A stretch of DNA of 28,076 bases from an uncultured archaeon (GTDB taxonomy: Archaea > Asgardarchaeota > Heimdallarchaeia > Heimdallarchaeales > Kariarchaeaceae). This document shows, in pieces, positions 17,855 through 22,955 of the stretch. A program made the position numbers and the translations under genes. The notes under the pieces were generated by a model. The model saw only the letters and a list, made by a program, of their open reading frames with translations. It did no database searches and was not told the DNA's origin. Numbering within the stretch: position 1 is the first letter of the stretch; the number at the start of each line of letters is the position of its first letter. The stretch covers positions 1 to 28,076 of the forward strand of contig CAZYCQ010000045.1 in assembly GCA_964645535.1 (NCBI GenBank), given 5' to 3'.

Positions 17855-18646
17855 GTGAAAGTCCTACTTGTCGGTCATGTATCTGTTGATGTATTTTCTG
17901 ATGAGCTAAGAATTGGTGGTCCTCCTACTTTTCAAGCACCCTTATTTCTCAATTGGGGTTATGAAGTCACAATACTGACCTCAGCTTCCAAAAATTTTCC
18001 CTTTCTTAGGCATCCCAAATTAAATATTTTCAATATCCCTTCAGAACAGACAACTACCTTTGAATTTGAGCTTAACGAGGATGGATCGAGAAAACTTACT
18101 TTGCTTCGGAGAGCTTCGGATTTGCCTCCAAAACTTCCATTTCAAGATCGATTTGACCTAGCTATTGTATCTCCTATCTGTGGTGAAGTCTCCATTGATC
18201 TTCTGGGTTCAATCCGTTCACAAGCAAAACTTGTAGCAGGTGATGTACAGGGTTTTATTCGGTCTGTTGATGCCAACGGCATTGTTTTCCATAAAACATC
18301 CATTGATTGGGGACTTTTTTCTCCATTTTTTGATATCCTCAAAGGATCTGATGAAGAAATGCTTGAACTTCCACCTCATCCCTCTTTTTACTATGTACAG
18401 ACAAGAGGTGCAAACCCTGTTATCATATGCAAATCTGATCAACTTCTTGAATTCAAGATCCAATCTGTCCCTCCCTCTGAAATTGTAGATTCAACCGGTT
18501 CTGGAGACATTTTTTTGGCAAGCTTCTCTCATGCCTTCATTCATTCCAATGATCTAAAAAAAGCAGTTGAATTTGGAAATAGAATCGCAATAAATAACCT
18601 GTTTAAAAAAGGAGCTCCACAACTACAATCTGGAAACGAAAGTTAG
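17855..18646 (+). CDS. PfkB/ribokinase-family carbohydrate kinase
   Basis: N-terminal VGHVSVD...IGG, and DSTGSGD anion-hole motif. Confidence 0.85.
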   Translation: MKVLLVGHVSVDVFSDELRIGGPPTFQAPLFLNWGYEVTILTSASKNFPFLRHPKLNIFNIPSEQTTTFEFELNEDGSRKLTLLRRASDLPPKLPFQDRFDLAIVSPICGEVSIDLLGSIRSQAKLVAGDVQGFIRSVDANGIVFHKTSIDWGLFSPFFDILKGSDEEMLELPPHPSFYYVQTRGANPVIICKSDQLLEFKIQSVPPSEIVDSTGSGDIFLASFSHAFIHSNDLKKAVEFGNRIAINNLFKKGAPQLQSGNES

Positions 18647-18901
18647 TTCTGCATCTTCCACACCATCAATTCCTCGAATGAATTCTTCCAATTTGTCTTG
18701 CATTCCGTCTTCCTCAGGGATGATGAATTGGACAGTTGCACCTTTGATTCCAAAATAAAGGGGCTTGATTTCGACGCCATCCTGCATCTTAATTCTTTTG
18801 TCCACCGTCGCCAATTTCTCCCTGACTTCCTTTGCGACAGCTTCCAAATCAACCTCTGGAGAGGATCCTTTAATCATATATTGAAGCAATACTTCACCCA
18901 T
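18623..18901 (-). CDS. ef1b: Archaeal translation elongation factor 1-beta
   Basis: MGEVLL...PEVDLE...PLYFGIK...EDAELTFVSRL. AGGTGA SD 5 nt before ATG 18901. Conserved adjacency to the Zn-ribbon gene. Confidence 0.9.
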   Translation of the reverse strand: MGEVLLQYMIKGSSPEVDLEAVAKEVREKLATVDKRIKMQDGVEIKPLYFGIKGATVQFIIPEEDGMQDKLEEFIRGIDGVEDAELTFVSRL

Positions 18902-18914
18902 TTTGTTCACCTAT

Positions 18915-19094
18915 TTATGGTCCTTCAAAGCCACAGCTGACACAGGCATATTTGTTTCCGACTCGTCTGCAAGAAGCACATCTAATGATGTTTGCTCCAC
19001 ATTCCGGACATTTGAACTTTGATGAACCTACGTCTGATGGCGCAAGTTCCCTGTTACAACTATAGCAATGATCTAGAGTAATGTTTGAACTCAT
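18915..19094 (-). CDS. Zn-ribbon protein (DUF1610/COG2888 type)
   Basis: CYSC, FKCPECG, RCASCR, YACVSCGFEGP; directly upstream of EF-1beta. Confidence 0.9.
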   Translation of the reverse strand: MSSNITLDHCYSCNRELAPSDVGSSKFKCPECGANIIRCASCRRVGNKYACVSCGFEGP

Positions 19095-19212
19095 CAAAGC
19101 AATCTCGATTCTGCTTTATAAAAAAAAATCGATAGATATTCCATGATAATCTTGACTCTTGTTGTCAGTTGTGGAAATAATAACATTAATAACTTCTAGT
19201 AAAGTAATCTGA

Positions 19213-19581
19213 TTGATGGTTGAACTAACCCTTTCATTTACAAATCCTGTGAAAAATGAATTATTCATCACTGAAAAGGCTGCGGAAAAAATAGAAAAAC
19301 TTCTTGAGCTTGAAAACAAAACAGACCACGCTCTTCGGATCAAGGTTATTCCTGGTGGATGTGCAGGCTTTTCCTATGATTTGGAATGGTTCCCCCTAAA
19401 GGATCTGAAAGACGAATTTGTCTTTGAGAAAGGGAAAGCGAAAGTTGTTGTTGGAATCTCTGATATGCGGCTCATTACAGGAAGTACTTTGGATTATGTC
19501 GAATCTTTGATGGCCAGCAAATTTGAACTCAAGAATCCTAATGCAACCAATACATGTGGTTGCGGAAAAAGTTTCTCATAA
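19213..19581 (+). CDS. A-type Fe-S carrier protein (HesB/IscA/ErpA family)
   Basis: ITEKAA, GGCAGFSY, NPNATNTCGCGKSF. The true start may lie a few codons downstream. Confidence 0.93.
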   Translation: MMVELTLSFTNPVKNELFITEKAAEKIEKLLELENKTDHALRIKVIPGGCAGFSYDLEWFPLKDLKDEFVFEKGKAKVVVGISDMRLITGSTLDYVESLMASKFELKNPNATNTCGCGKSFS

Positions 19582-19629: not shown

Positions 19630-20580
19630 GTGACAGAGGAAGATTTCCCCGGTATACCAACAGAACTTGCGGCTCAATTGAAGAAAATTGGTTATCCCTC
19701 ATTGAAATCTTTGGCCTTAGCAACTGAAGATGAACTTATTCATGACCTGAATATTTCCAGTGAAATGGCTGTAGATCTCATCAACAAAGGGCGATCCTTA
19801 ATTTCAGTGCCCCCTGTCACTGCTGATCAACTCCTTGAAGATGAATACAATCGAGGAAAATTGACTACTTCTTCCAATAACCTTGATTCTCTCTTGGAGG
19901 GCGGCGTATGGGAAAAAGAAATTACTGAAATAGCCGGGGGTTTCGCAACTGGAAAAAGTCAAATATGTTTCCAACTATCAGTAAATGCCCAACTTCCAAG
20001 AGATCGTGGTGGCTTGGAAGGAAAAGTTTTCTTCGTTGATACTGAGGGCACATTTTCTGCAAAACGTGTGGGCGAACTTGCAATTGCTCATGATCTAGAT
20101 CCCCGTGAAGTGCTTTCAAACATTTTCGTTGCCAGAGTCCTTGATTCAACTCAACAGTTCAAGATCATCAAAAAGGTCAGTGAAATGGCAGAAAAAGAGA
20201 ACATCAAGCTTGTTATTGTTGATTCTTTGGCAGCCCATTTTCGGGCAGACTATATTGGCAAAAACAAGCTTGTAGAAAGACAGCAAAAGATTATGCAACA
20301 AGCTACTCTTCTTTCTACGTTAGCTTTTACACAAGATCTTGCTGTAGTGGTGACCAATCAAGTCATTGCAAGAGTGGATGAGTTTGCCAGTTCGACAAGT
20401 GACCAACCTGCATTGGGACAGGCTTGGGCACATCGACCACAAACAAGGCTTCTTCTCAGGAAATCCCCTGGTTTGGCCAGAATTGCAAGGCTATTGGATA
20501 GTCCTAGAAGACCGGAAGGAGAAGAGATATTTTACATAACTCCTGTAGGTATTCGAGACAAACCTCATTCTGGTTTTTAG
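19630..20580 (+). CDS. RadA/Rad51-family recombinase paralog
   Basis: N-terminal HhH (FPGIP), Walker A GGFATGKSQ, VDTEGTF, Walker B VIVDS, VVVTNQV, RIARLLDSP. FxxA absent and L2 region atypical, so not called radA. Confidence 0.9.
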   Translation: MTEEDFPGIPTELAAQLKKIGYPSLKSLALATEDELIHDLNISSEMAVDLINKGRSLISVPPVTADQLLEDEYNRGKLTTSSNNLDSLLEGGVWEKEITEIAGGFATGKSQICFQLSVNAQLPRDRGGLEGKVFFVDTEGTFSAKRVGELAIAHDLDPREVLSNIFVARVLDSTQQFKIIKKVSEMAEKENIKLVIVDSLAAHFRADYIGKNKLVERQQKIMQQATLLSTLAFTQDLAVVVTNQVIARVDEFASSTSDQPALGQAWAHRPQTRLLLRKSPGLARIARLLDSPRRPEGEEIFYITPVGIRDKPHSGF

Positions 20581-21279
20581 GTGAACACACTGAACCCACA
20601 GCAAATCACGGGAATAATTCTGTCTGGTGGAGATTCAACTAGATTTGGATCTGACAAGGCTTTAGCTCCGTTTTTGGGGACTTCATTTCTTCTTCGTCAA
20701 CTGGGATTGCTTGAAAAGGTATGCTCCAAAGTTTTTCTTTCCGTAAAAAACGAGGAAAAGCTTACCGAATACCGTCGTCATATCATTGAAGGCTGGAAAT
20801 TGGAAAAACTTCCTGATTGGTTATCCTTTGTTGTTGATTCCCCTGATTTTTATTCAAGAGGGCCTGCGAAAGGAGTTTTTTCGTGTCTCAAAAAAGCAAC
20901 CTCTGAATACATCCTTGTAATCCCTGTAGATATGCCATTTATTGAAATTGCACATCTCTCATTTCTACAGAAACTTTTCAAGAAAAAGCAGATCAATAAA
21001 GAAATTGCATTGGTTGGCTGGAAGCAAAAAAATGGGAAAATTCCCTACCCTTTTTTTATGGGAAAGACAATTCCTATCCTTGAACTCCTGAAAAGGGTAA
21101 AAAAATCCTCCACAGTACCTCTAAGATGGATTTATCATCAAGTTCCCAACCAGATACTGATCGAACCAATCAATGACCAGTTTTTGACAAACATCAACTT
21201 TCCAGAGCTTTTGAACAAGCCAAAATCCCAAATCCCATTTCATGTGAAGTCATTGTTCATCAGGCATCATAATCCCTAA
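20581..21279 (+). CDS. mobA: MobA-like molybdenum cofactor guanylyltransferase
   Basis: ILSGGDSTRFGSDKA, GPxxG, PVDMPF, FLTNIN. Start is GTG 20581 or CTG 20590. Confidence 0.82.
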   Translation: MNTLNPQQITGIILSGGDSTRFGSDKALAPFLGTSFLLRQLGLLEKVCSKVFLSVKNEEKLTEYRRHIIEGWKLEKLPDWLSFVVDSPDFYSRGPAKGVFSCLKKATSEYILVIPVDMPFIEIAHLSFLQKLFKKKQINKEIALVGWKQKNGKIPYPFFMGKTIPILELLKRVKKSSTVPLRWIYHQVPNQILIEPINDQFLTNINFPELLNKPKSQIPFHVKSLFIRHHNP

Positions 21280-21720
21280 TTTTGCTATTTCGTCTGAATA
21301 ACGATAAAAAAATGCCTTTTCTTGCTTGGCATCCCTCAGCGAATCTGGATACATGACTGGAATTTCACGGTCAACAATAAAATATCGGACTTTCCCTTTA
21401 TGTTCAAAATAAAGAATTGCATCAACTATTTCCTCTTCAAAACATCTTAAACATTCTTCAAAACTCACCACTTGATTAATCTCTGATTTTGGTAAAGTCT
21501 TTTCTTCTGGTTCCAATGGGTCTTCCACTAAAAACTTCTTTTTCCTAGAACAATAAAATTTGCAGAGCAAACCAGTTTCAGAATGAGGGATTGGTTTCTT
21601 GGATCTTTCCCTTTTCTCCGATTTGAAAACTTCAATTTCCAATGGCCAATTTCTTGGGTTGTCTGGATCCGCAAGAATGTCCAATAACCTAAATTGCATC
21701 AAATCTTTTCTTTTTTCCAA
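21250..21720 (-). CDS. Trm112-family methyltransferase activator (long form)
   Basis: RLLDILAxP...PLEIEVF and EEIVDAIL...RYFIVDREIPVMYPDSLR, with a Cys-containing insert. Confidence 0.72.
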   Translation of the reverse strand: MEKRKDLMQFRLLDILADPDNPRNWPLEIEVFKSEKRERSKKPIPHSETGLLCKFYCSRKKKFLVEDPLEPEEKTLPKSEINQVVSFEECLRCFEEEIVDAILYFEHKGKVRYFIVDREIPVMYPDSLRDAKQEKAFFYRYSDEIAKLGIMMPDEQ

Positions 21721-21824: not shown

Positions 21825-22955
21825 ATGTTCGAAGTGAATTCAACCGATAATCTTATCGAGCTAGTCTCAAAATTTGAAAAATCATTCAGGGAACTTGACT
21901 TCGAATTACATAGTATATTGACATATGATAGTGGCGGTGAATTTATCCTTCACGCTGGTTATGAAAGCAATCTGATTGATCCCAAAGTAATCGGAGGTCT
22001 TGTGGTAGCAATTAATGAATTTACTGGAAAACCAACAAAACGTACTATCAGAACCATTGCCATGAAGGAAATGACCCTGAAATTTTCAACTCAAGATGAT
22101 GTGCTCTTCGTTTTTGTCACCAAAAAGGCAGTCCCCTCGGAAGACAAATACAACACCTTTATTAACAGATTTCTTGATGCATTTCATGTATCCTTCAAAC
22201 AGGAACGTGACGAAGAAAGAGAAGAGAGAGATAAAATTGCCACAGCCCTTGTCAAAATCACCCTTTTGCTGTCGGAAGAGTTCCAACCATCCTTGAAATT
22301 AGGTGAAAATCAAACTCTGGATCTCGAATTGGTATTCTACGAAGCTGATAAACGTATCTCAAATCTTCTCAGCACATTCTATACTGAGGTTCCAAAAGCA
22401 GATGAAGAAGAAGAGGAAATAACTTCTGAAACACGAGTTCCTCAAGAAACTGATGCTTTATCCAACGATACTCCCCCTGTGTCTGATATCGAAGAAGAAA
22501 CTAGGAGACTTGAAGAATCGGCTGGCATCGAAGAAGAAACTCCTGTATCTTCAGATGCCGAAGCATTCCGAAGTATTGAAGTTGATCCATTCAAATCAAT
22601 AGAATTCATGGTTCAGAAGTTCAATCAATCCTTTCCAGATATCATGTTGACCACAGTTGTTGTTTCTTCTCCAAATGGTGCGTTTCAAACAATTTCCCAA
22701 GGGACTCTTCCTTCACACATCCTTGAAAAACTCAATTCTACCGTTTTCGAGCTGATGCCGGTAATCTATTCAATTTGGGATAAGTCTGTGGAAGACAGAA
22801 CTCTTGAGTTAGGTGAATATTGGGCTTTTTTCCAAAAAATCAATGATTCCTCCTTCATGTATGTGATTACAAAAACCCATGATTCCATTATATTGATCGA
22901 ACCCATTCTGGAAAGGTTGGCCTTTTCCATCAATTCAATTCTTCCATCACAATGA
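21825..22955 (+). CDS. Longin-like + acidic linker + roadblock/profilin-like two-domain protein
   Basis: N-domain ILTYDSGG...DPKVIGGLVVAINEF...IRTIAM; Glu-rich linker; C-domain FNQSFPDIMLTTVVV...WAFFQKINDSSFMYVIT. Confidence 0.55.
   Translation: MFEVNSTDNLIELVSKFEKSFRELDFELHSILTYDSGGEFILHAGYESNLIDPKVIGGLVVAINEFTGKPTKRTIRTIAMKEMTLKFSTQDDVLFVFVTKKAVPSEDKYNTFINRFLDAFHVSFKQERDEEREERDKIATALVKITLLLSEEFQPSLKLGENQTLDLELVFYEADKRISNLLSTFYTEVPKADEEEEEITSETRVPQETDALSNDTPPVSDIEEETRRLEESAGIEEETPVSSDAEAFRSIEVDPFKSIEFMVQKFNQSFPDIMLTTVVVSSPNGAFQTISQGTLPSHILEKLNSTVFELMPVIYSIWDKSVEDRTLELGEYWAFFQKINDSSFMYVITKTHDSIILIEPILERLAFSINSILPSQ

Follow-up and report, generated by a model that had tools for sequence, protein, structure and literature searches.

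A second RadA family with a RAD51C/RAD51D-like PALGxxW element in Heimdallarchaeia

The window analysed here is a whole stretch of 28,076 nucleotides (contig CAZYCQ010000045.1 of GenBank assembly GCA_964645535.1, positions 1 to 28,076 of the forward strand) from an uncultured archaeon of the Kariarchaeaceae. This family is placed in the Heimdallarchaeia, the archaeal class thought to be closest to eukaryotes. One gene of the window encodes a paralog of the recombinase RadA in which the segment following loop L2 reads PALGQAWAH, and the protein and its relatives are called here PALG-RadA or the PALG family. PALG-RadA is a conserved second RadA family of essentially all sampled Heimdallarchaeia and of a few other Asgard lineages, and its derived residues are largely the same as those that define the eukaryotic RAD51 paralogs RAD51C and RAD51D. 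The RAD51 paralogs are tumour suppressors that load and cap RAD51 filaments; their origin is unsettled and the usual view pairs them with RadB, which lacks the N-terminal domain (NTD). The PALG family is full length, near-universal in Heimdallarchaeia, carries the diagnostic residues of these paralogs and is RadA-like elsewhere.

The PALG gene and its product

The features of the gene are listed in Table 1. The database's own gene call gives 318 aa, and the start could therefore lie two codons upstream of the GTG codon. The product was matched by the Pfam Rad51 model (PF08423) over residues 77-310 with an E-value of 1.9e-67 (227.5 bits against a gathering cut-off of 22) and by nearly the whole NCBIfam RadA equivalog model NF003301 over residues 4-310 (313.8 against a cut-off of 259). 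The older RadA model TIGR02236 gave 294.2, under its cut-off of 361.15, and the RadB model TIGR02237 gave 133.5 against 172.4; the RAD51 and DMC1 models were likewise far under their cut-offs. Membership of RadB or aRadC was ruled out by the architecture and by the TIGR02237 score. The aRadC proteins and the crenarchaeal RadA paralogs are accessory and are reported to be KaiC-like and to have no N-terminal domain, a description that would set them apart from PALG-RadA.

Table 1. Features of the PALG gene and of its product (positions are those of the window; aa, residues of the product).
Feature	Position	Strand	Basis or remark
Whole gene, RadA paralog of the PALG family	19630..20580	+	316 aa, GTG start; start possibly 6 nt upstream
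N-terminal helical domain, aa 1-58	19630..19803	+	AlphaFold2 helices 11-58; full-length match to RAD51; column counts
Linker motif PVTA at the FxxA place, aa 62-65	19813..19824	+	Motif position, family column counts
Walker A GGFATGKS, aa 103-110, Lys109 invariant	19936..19959	+	Motif position, family conservation
Phe134 at the place of human RAD51 Met158	20029..20031	+	Alignment to RAD51; pocket identity from the RAD51-BRC4 literature
DTEGTF, catalytic Glu139 invariant	20038..20055	+	Family conservation, alignment to RAD51
Walker B LVIVDS, Asp198 invariant, followed by family-specific Ala201, common to RAD51C	20209..20226	+	
L1 YIGKNKL, aa 208-214; Tyr kept, Arg (human RAD51 R235) replaced	20251..20271	+	
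L2 loop, aa 245-259, normal length; Val249-Asp250 pair (20374-20379)	20362..20406	+	
Family signature PALGQAWAHRPQTR after L2, including PALGQAWAH (aa 260-268, nt 20407-20433)	20407..20448	+	
DSP, Asp290 equivalent to human RAD51 D316 (ATP cap)	20497..20505	+	

The motifs read by the original prediction, which was made from the DNA letters without database searches (PVTA, YIGKNKL, PALGQAWAH and intact Walker motifs), were recovered to the nucleotide. It had also claimed a full-length RadA architecture with an N-terminal helix-hairpin-helix (HhH) domain. An AlphaFold2 model computed from the family alignment had a mean predicted local distance difference test score (pLDDT) of 91.1 and a predicted template modelling score (pTM) of 0.88, with low confidence only in L2 (block 250-260). 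The best PDB matches found by Foldseek were full-length human and yeast RAD51, Dmc1 and RadA filament protomers, with template modelling (TM) scores up to 0.88-0.89 (0.88 to RAD51). Because the model covers this region and the RAD51 matches are full length, the N-terminal domain is predicted to be kept as a fold; its two glycine hairpins are degenerate, and no Pfam HHH_5 match was found in the protein at E-values up to 0.01. Its protein-language-model neighbours in the ESM Atlas were all ordinary RadA/RAD51 clusters.

A conserved family and its diagnostic residues

A protein search revealed about 100 cluster representatives with PALGx[AS]W[ASG]HRP at 44-84% identity, ordinary RadA starting only below them; the closest relative, at 84%, came from a Heimdallarchaeota metagenome-assembled genome (MAG). 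The named sources of these clusters were all Asgard MAGs (Heimdallarchaeota LC_2, Kariarchaeaceae, Heimdallarchaeaceae, 'Asgard group' and one 'Thorarchaeota'). When the family profile was searched against 200 genomes of the phylum, the scores were split into a high group and a lower, continuous one. At least 397 bits were reached in 43 of the 44 genomes of the same class (Heimdallarchaeia, families f1-f6) and in 3 genomes of two other families, and the paralog was not found by this profile in about 150 other Asgard genomes, where scores were at most 385 bits. Twenty matches were read: the 16 at 385 bits or less were canonical RadA with P[VI]GG[HN], and the four high-scoring ones carried PALG. 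In a one-genome-per-species collection, 78 of the 80 best-matching loci had PALG.[AS]W[ASG]HRP, and their labels were Heimdall-, Kari-, Hod- and Wukongarchaeota with a few Thor-, Hermod- or Bathyarchaeia. Loci labelled Bathyarchaeia, Thorarchaeota and Hermodarchaeota (L194, DATKZI010000004.1; L148, L207 and L189) also contain the paralog; either these MAG labels are wrong or the family extends beyond the Heimdall group.

Canonical RadA was present in every PALG carrier checked. In the genome under study (3.6 Mb, 89% complete), six Rad51-family genes were detected, and the canonical radA that the original prediction expected elsewhere was found in two copies next to three more paralogs, so that PALG-RadA is not the only RadA. 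The two canonical proteins (C5:40690-41385 and C20:6325-7014) are of about 400 aa, have a duplicated N-terminal HhH module and carry AVGGNIMGH, YAGRGTL and FTNG/FTNA. A third gene (C83:4757-5476) encodes a RadA without N-terminal domain that keeps FKSA and GGN. The last two (C16:14050-14724 and C20:23033-23734) are very divergent copies, with end branches of 2.3 and 3.2 changes per site and scores below all curated cut-offs; including or excluding them changed the deep topology of the trees.

Residues were mapped by an alignment to mammalian RAD51 anchored on Walker A, DTEGTF, LLIVDS, YSGRGEL and PIGGNIIAH, and were counted in 102 family members and 17 canonical RadA. The equivalents of RAD51 K133, T134, E163, D222, R229, R241, N267, Q268, H294 and D316 are invariant in the family; H294 senses the ATP bound by the adjacent protomer, and D316 forms the ATP cap. 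The signature PALGQAWAHRPQTR stands where RadA/Rad51 has P[VI]GG[HN]xxAH: P260, A261, L262, G263, W266, H268, R269, P270 and R273 are found in 102/102 members, and the canonical Gly in 17/17 canonical sequences. At the Phe of the FxxA filament motif, the family has P in 87, Q in 7, L in 4, A in 3 and F in 1 of the 102 members, against W/F/Y in 17/17 canonical RadA. The claimed loss of this motif thus holds for the Phe and fails for the Ala, which is invariant (102/102). The Arg of L1 (consensus Y-x-G-R-G/E-x-L), present in 17/17 canonical proteins, is replaced by K (48), D (23), E (16) or others, and by K211 in this protein. At residue 134, all 102 members have F or Y, where canonical RadA has L/V/I. 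This place, Met158 of human RAD51, presumably forms part of the Phe-accepting pocket known from the RAD51-BRC4 literature, and that pocket would be bulkier in the family. Before the conserved Asp of L2 the family has I/V/M/F, where canonical archaeal RadA has Pro (17/17); the Val-Asp pair of this protein at aa 249-250 is as in eukaryotic Rad51. Both HhH glycine hairpins are degenerate family-wide, with FPGIPT in place of LPGVGP: LPGVGP is conserved in 15-17 and GIG in 12-14 of the 17 canonical RadA, and neither hairpin is conserved in the PALG family.

As seen in structures of RecA and RAD51 filaments on DNA, the phosphates of single-stranded DNA are held by the L1 Arg together with backbone amides of the GG-N turn; HhH hairpins bind duplex DNA, and the FxxA Phe plugs into the next protomer. 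Judged from these residues, PALG-RadA keeps the ATPase machinery and the interface that depends on ATP, and it has lost three putative DNA contacts as well as the main knob for polymerisation. A set of 52 diverse members has 42 invariant columns, among them the Walker A Lys, the Walker B Asp and the catalytic Glu, and the family is therefore under purifying selection as a distinct protein. A pseudogene or decaying copy was ruled out by these columns and by the presence of the gene in nearly every genome of the class.

Whole-sequence comparison with PDB chains gave 229 bits to Sulfolobus solfataricus RadA (2bke), 226 to Pyrococcus furiosus RadA (1pzn), 188 to human RAD51, 116 to RAD51C, 104 to XRCC3, 90 to RAD51B and 85 to RAD51D. 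A query of 22-24 aa around the motif matched, among Rad51-family PDB chains, only RAD51D (KPALGRSWSFVPSTRILL, with KPALGRSWSF), RAD51C (IPALGESWGH) and RAD51B. The eukaryotic motifs cited by the original prediction are in agreement with database sequences and PDB chains for RAD51C and RAD51D, which have PALGxxW; the short query extends the likeness to RAD51B. The loose pattern [PAST][AST][LMIV]GxxW fits 126 of 150 RAD51C cluster representatives, nearly all of them as PALGxxW and one exactly as PALGQAW, and PALGRSW stood in 118 of 119 proteins from a search baited with RAD51D. Canonical RadA, Rad51, Dmc1 and RadB have GG at this place.

For the character analysis, columns conserved in canonical RadA were scored for conserved replacements specific to a group, of which PALG has 8. 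The columns derived in both members of a pair (with the same residue in brackets) numbered 5 (3) for PALG and RAD51C, 7 (4, including Pro at the FxxA Phe and Leu for Gly) for PALG and RAD51D, 11 (2) for RadB and RAD51C, 15 (2) for RadB and RAD51D, 4 (0) for Rad51+Dmc1 and RAD51C, 7 (1) for Rad51+Dmc1 and RAD51D, and 16 (7) for RAD51C and RAD51D. Other residues are shared with the recombinases: the ATP-cap position is Asp in PALG and RadA/Rad51 and Lys in RAD51C, RAD51D and RadB, and the L1 Tyr common to PALG and RadA/Rad51 is Phe/Leu in RAD51C, RAD51D and RadB. Of these two sets of characters, one must be homoplastic; the residues may have reverted along the long stem of RAD51C/D (0.8-0.9 changes per site) or converged along the short one of PALG (0.14-0.27).

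The post-L2 helix of canonical RadA in other Asgard lineages (L007, L009-L013, L016, L018 and L022) reads GGHVLAHVPQTRL, similar to AHRPQTR in the PALG family and to SFVPSTR in RAD51D, where other archaea and Rad51 have AH(A/S)(A/T)T(Y/T)R. The likeness is possibly a trace of an origin of the family within Asgard RadA.

Phylogenetic position and origin

Eukaryotic sequences were collected by baiting the protein database with PDB fragments (RAD51C/D, Rad51/Dmc1) and by a representative search with RAD51C; RadB and further RadA sequences were taken from the genome searches. The RAD-beta group of the trees consists of RAD51C and vertebrate RAD51D only, XRCC3, RAD51B, XRCC2 and Rad55/57 being left out. 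Since the trees are unrooted and have no RecA outgroup, 'sister' denotes an unrooted split only. Dataset 1 comprised 83 rows and 317 columns and was analysed under LG+C20+F+G4 with posterior mean site frequencies (PMSF). Dataset 2 comprised 87 rows aligned with L-INS-i, from which the two very long paralogs had been removed and to which more Heimdall RadA had been added.

With dataset 1, a quick search grouped PALG with RadA/Rad51/Dmc1 (support 87), and a careful maximum-likelihood (ML) search of better likelihood grouped it with RAD51C+RAD51D (82/98). In the careful free tree of dataset 2, PALG was sister to the clan of canonical RadA, Rad51 and Dmc1, and PALG plus this clan were split from RAD51C, RAD51D and RadB at 94/98. 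RadB formed a separate clade (100/99). PALG did not branch inside canonical RadA, which would have spoken against the original prediction: the canonical clan excludes it at 100/98 in dataset 2, and it adjoins the RAD51C/D branch in every tree. The PALG family is at a three-way junction between the canonical recombinases, RAD51C/D and RadB.

Three placements of PALG were compared on dataset 2, namely sister to RAD51C/D, sister to all canonical RadA (the free tree) and nested in Asgard RadA; differences in log-likelihood (lnL) are relative to the free tree, negative values being worse, and P values are those of the approximately unbiased (AU) test. Under the full C20 mixture with all columns, the tree joining PALG to RAD51C/D was 2.3-3.5 lnL better than the free tree (p-AU 0.546) and the tree nesting it in Asgard/eukaryote RadA gave -11.25 (p-AU 0.212). 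The corresponding values were -1.1 (p 0.51) and -20.3 (p 0.085) with PMSF and all columns, -8.2 (p 0.35) and -8.3 (p 0.29) with PMSF without the 10 motif columns, and -13.1 (p 0.32) and -14.9 (p 0.25) under LG+F+G4 with all columns. When the motif, FxxA and L1 columns were all removed, the RAD51C/D grouping was 14.5 lnL worse. None of the three placements was rejected. Site likelihoods for the RAD51C/D grouping amounted to +8.6 lnL over the ten motif columns and -5.1 over the other 311, and the link to RAD51C/D therefore depends for the most part on the motif. Replacing LG+F+G4 by the better-fitting site-heterogeneous model shifted the likelihoods by about 16 lnL toward this grouping.

The original prediction proposed an Asgard origin for RAD51B, RAD51C, RAD51D and XRCC3. 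The ML grouping with RAD51C/D in one dataset agrees with this proposal, which is not established: the signal comes mainly from the motif and two rival placements stand. If the likeness is due to common descent, PALG-RadA would be the archaeal sister or stem of RAD-beta, that is of RAD51C, RAD51D and probably XRCC3/Rad57 and RAD51B, which we consider possible but rather doubtful. The model shift has the direction expected if the grouping of RAD51C/D with RadB is a long-branch attraction. PALG has the same derived A201, A225, A261, L262, W266 and Pro at the FxxA Phe, positions at which RadB keeps the RadA states. Its core identity to RAD51D (29.4%, and 28.3% without the motif) is above that of every canonical group (about 25.5-25.8%). 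Some carriers of the family are labelled Hodarchaeota, a group proposed as the sister of eukaryotes. Against descent, support for the joined tree was never significant and fell when the motif columns were removed, and PALG grouped with RadA/Rad51 in the free tree of dataset 2 and in the quick tree of dataset 1. The Asp at the ATP cap and the L1 Tyr argue in the same sense, as does the absence from PALG of the L1 deletion of RAD51C/D, and the sampling described above, with RAD51D from vertebrates only, weakens the case further. Were descent true, the split between recombinases and NTD-bearing mediators would have taken place in archaea of the Heimdall lineage, earlier than eukaryogenesis, and the archaeal counterpart of the mediators would not be RadB, a scenario that seems to us somewhat improbable.

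Alternatively, the family may have arisen by a duplication within Asgard archaea, with PALGxxW and Pro-x-x-Ala gained independently through the same functional shift and a basal position that is an artefact of accelerated change; we put this at slightly under an even chance. Because the distribution is restricted to Heimdallarchaeia and few Asgard lineages, an older origin needs many losses. The nested placement survived the AU test under the full mixture, with PMSF and without the motif, the canonical RadA of several Asgard lineages has AHVPQTR, which is similar to AHRPQTR of the family, and Asp290 and Tyr208 are states of the RadA/Rad51 type. Outside the motif, moreover, the identity of PALG to RAD51C is not above that of canonical RadA to RAD51C (33.6% against 34-35%). 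However, the canonical RadA+Rad51+Dmc1 clan excludes PALG with strong support, the nested tree is 11-20 lnL worse when all columns are used, and the short PALG stem is not that of an obvious long-branch victim. The 5-6 identical derived residues are proportionally as many as those of the pair RAD51C-RAD51D, and no such convergence is seen in RadB, likewise a non-recombinase paralog.

Function and comparison with known systems

PALG-RadA is probably an accessory ATPase resembling the RAD51 paralogs and not a strand-exchange enzyme. A mediator or filament cap, as the original prediction suggested, would fit a conserved paralog of this kind better than a recombinase, because it has lost the residues that determine DNA contact and polymerisation through the Phe and has kept those of the ATP site and of the interface. 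On this sequence basis, the protein would bind ATP and dock, much as in a filament, either onto canonical RadA or onto itself. As an accessory subunit, it could nucleate, stabilise or cap RadA filaments, as paralogs of the RAD51C/RAD51D type do for RAD51. The more specific part of the original claim, a non-polymerising or capping behaviour, we infer only as something the protein may display.

A complex of the PALG protein with the RadA-homologous part of the canonical RadA of this genome and ATP was predicted with a score of 0.58, against 0.00 for the best of three controls; the mark used for such predictions is reached by 58 of 80 solved complexes and by 2 of 110 mismatched pairs, and at scores of 0.60 or less by only 7 of those 80 solved complexes and by both passing mismatches. 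The runs agreed in at least 88% of contacts and the pLDDT of the partner was at least 80. Because RadA/Rad51 filaments are solved structures, the score shows likeness rather than binding, and the prediction lends weak support to an interaction with canonical RadA.

Besides the weakness of this support, several observations count against an accessory role. PALG-RadA exceeds the cut-off of the RadA equivalog NF003301, and its overall similarity is highest to true RadA (229 bits against 116 to RAD51C). L2 is full length, and Tyr208, R205 and R217 (RAD51 Y232, R229 and R241) are kept, so that some DNA binding by the protein is likely; it may be a recombinase with altered specificity. The conserved P-x-[TS]-A and the F/Y pocket could form a private interface for self-polymerisation. 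The gene surroundings are of housekeeping type and have no link to repair.

As a further alternative, the protein may be a second, orthogonal recombinase that polymerises on DNA through a private pair of Pro-x-[TS]-Ala and F/Y134 without mixing with canonical RadA and serves a specialised recombination. Both the linker motif and the substituted pocket residue are conserved and occur together in 102/102 members, the ATPase and trans-interface residues are intact, the full-length L2 has the Rad51-like Val/Ile-Asp pair, and the NF003301 cut-off is passed. Such an enzyme is nevertheless unlikely. The family-wide loss of the L1 Arg, of the GG-N/H phosphate-binding cap and of the HhH hairpins would remove three separate DNA contacts, the same replacement of GG marks the non-recombinase RAD51 paralogs, and we know of no characterised RecA-family recombinase without GG. 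An accessory function of PALG-RadA is the preferred interpretation.

The neighbouring genes encode GMP synthase, a PfkB kinase, aEF-1-beta, an HVO_2753-like zinc finger, an IscA-like protein and a MobA-like transferase. Upstream (18626-19581) lie aEF-1-beta, the HVO_2753-like zinc-finger protein and the IscA-like Fe-S protein. Downstream, the start codon of the MobA-like nucleotidyltransferase gene (20581-21279) directly abuts the PALG stop codon, which suggests that the two genes are co-transcribed. The order EF-1-beta/IscA/paralog recurs in a relative of 64% identity (L212), in which only the EF-1-beta/IscA neighbours recur, and no repair genes were found near the PALG gene in three other loci. 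The open reading frames at 21253-21720 (-; 156 aa) and 21825-22952 (+; 376 aa) gave no Pfam match at E-values up to 0.001.

In eukaryotes, RAD51C and RAD51D are subunits of the BCDX2 and XRCC3 complexes that assemble and cap RAD51 filaments (PMC7618403, PMC7614784). Greenhough et al. described an XRCC3-RAD51C-RAD51D-XRCC2 complex that caps the 5' ends of RAD51 filaments and treated RadB as the archaeal counterpart (PMC7618403). Matsuo et al. reported in 2025 two RadA clades in Heimdall-, Njord- and Gerdarchaea, which were compared only with Rad51/DMC1, without motif analysis or RAD51 paralogs (PMC12722695). Their second clade shares with PALG the same taxa and two RadA copies per MAG and is very probably the PALG family. 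Ferlez et al. sorted Asgard recombinases into 18 groups, discarded four that lacked clear Walker A, L1 or L2 motifs, and found Val before the L2 Asp to be nearly absent from archaea (bioRxiv 10.1101/2025.02.19.639135); the PALG family may have been filtered out there. A 2026 preprint mentions in passing a structural cluster of Asgard and eukaryotic proteins only, whose eukaryotic members are RAD51D (PMC13734099); this cluster may be the PALG family, and would then count in favour of common descent. In the literature library that was searched, no paper was found to report the PALG signature for RadA paralogs of Asgard archaea, to link them to RAD51C or XRCC3 or to test them against RAD51 paralogs.

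If common descent is true, mediator-assisted recombination would already have been present in the archaeal ancestor of eukaryotes; if convergence is true, the family would reveal the small set of residue changes by which a recombinase becomes an accessory subunit. In both cases, it opens the function of the PALGxxW element to tests in a simple archaeal system of two proteins. Asgard 'RadA' annotations would mix two functionally different proteins, which affects studies in which the Rad51/Dmc1 split is dated by means of RadA.

Compared with known systems, PALG-RadA has in common with canonical RadA (2bke, 1pzn), Rad51 and Dmc1 the two-domain architecture, the length, Walker A and B, the catalytic Glu, the Gln, the trans His and the cap Asp. 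It differs from them by Pro, LGxxW and the F/Y pocket, whereas they have the FxxA Phe, the L1 Arg, GG[HN] and the HhH glycine hairpins. RadB is likewise a paralog found alongside RadA and regarded as an accessory or capping factor (PMC7618403), but it has no N-terminal domain, keeps GG after L2 and forms a separate clade. With RAD51C and RAD51D, PALG-RadA shares PALGxxW(x)H, further derived residues, coexistence with a true recombinase and an adjoining position in all trees, and with RAD51C, RAD51D and XRCC3 a full length including the N-terminal domain. RAD51C and RAD51D form hetero-oligomers that bind the end of the recombinase filament, and for a like behaviour of PALG-RadA the predicted complex with canonical RadA gives weak support. 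The sampled RAD51C and RAD51D have Lys at the ATP cap and a shortened L1; PALG-RadA has Asp290 and an L1 of full length with Tyr208, and it is overall much closer to RadA.

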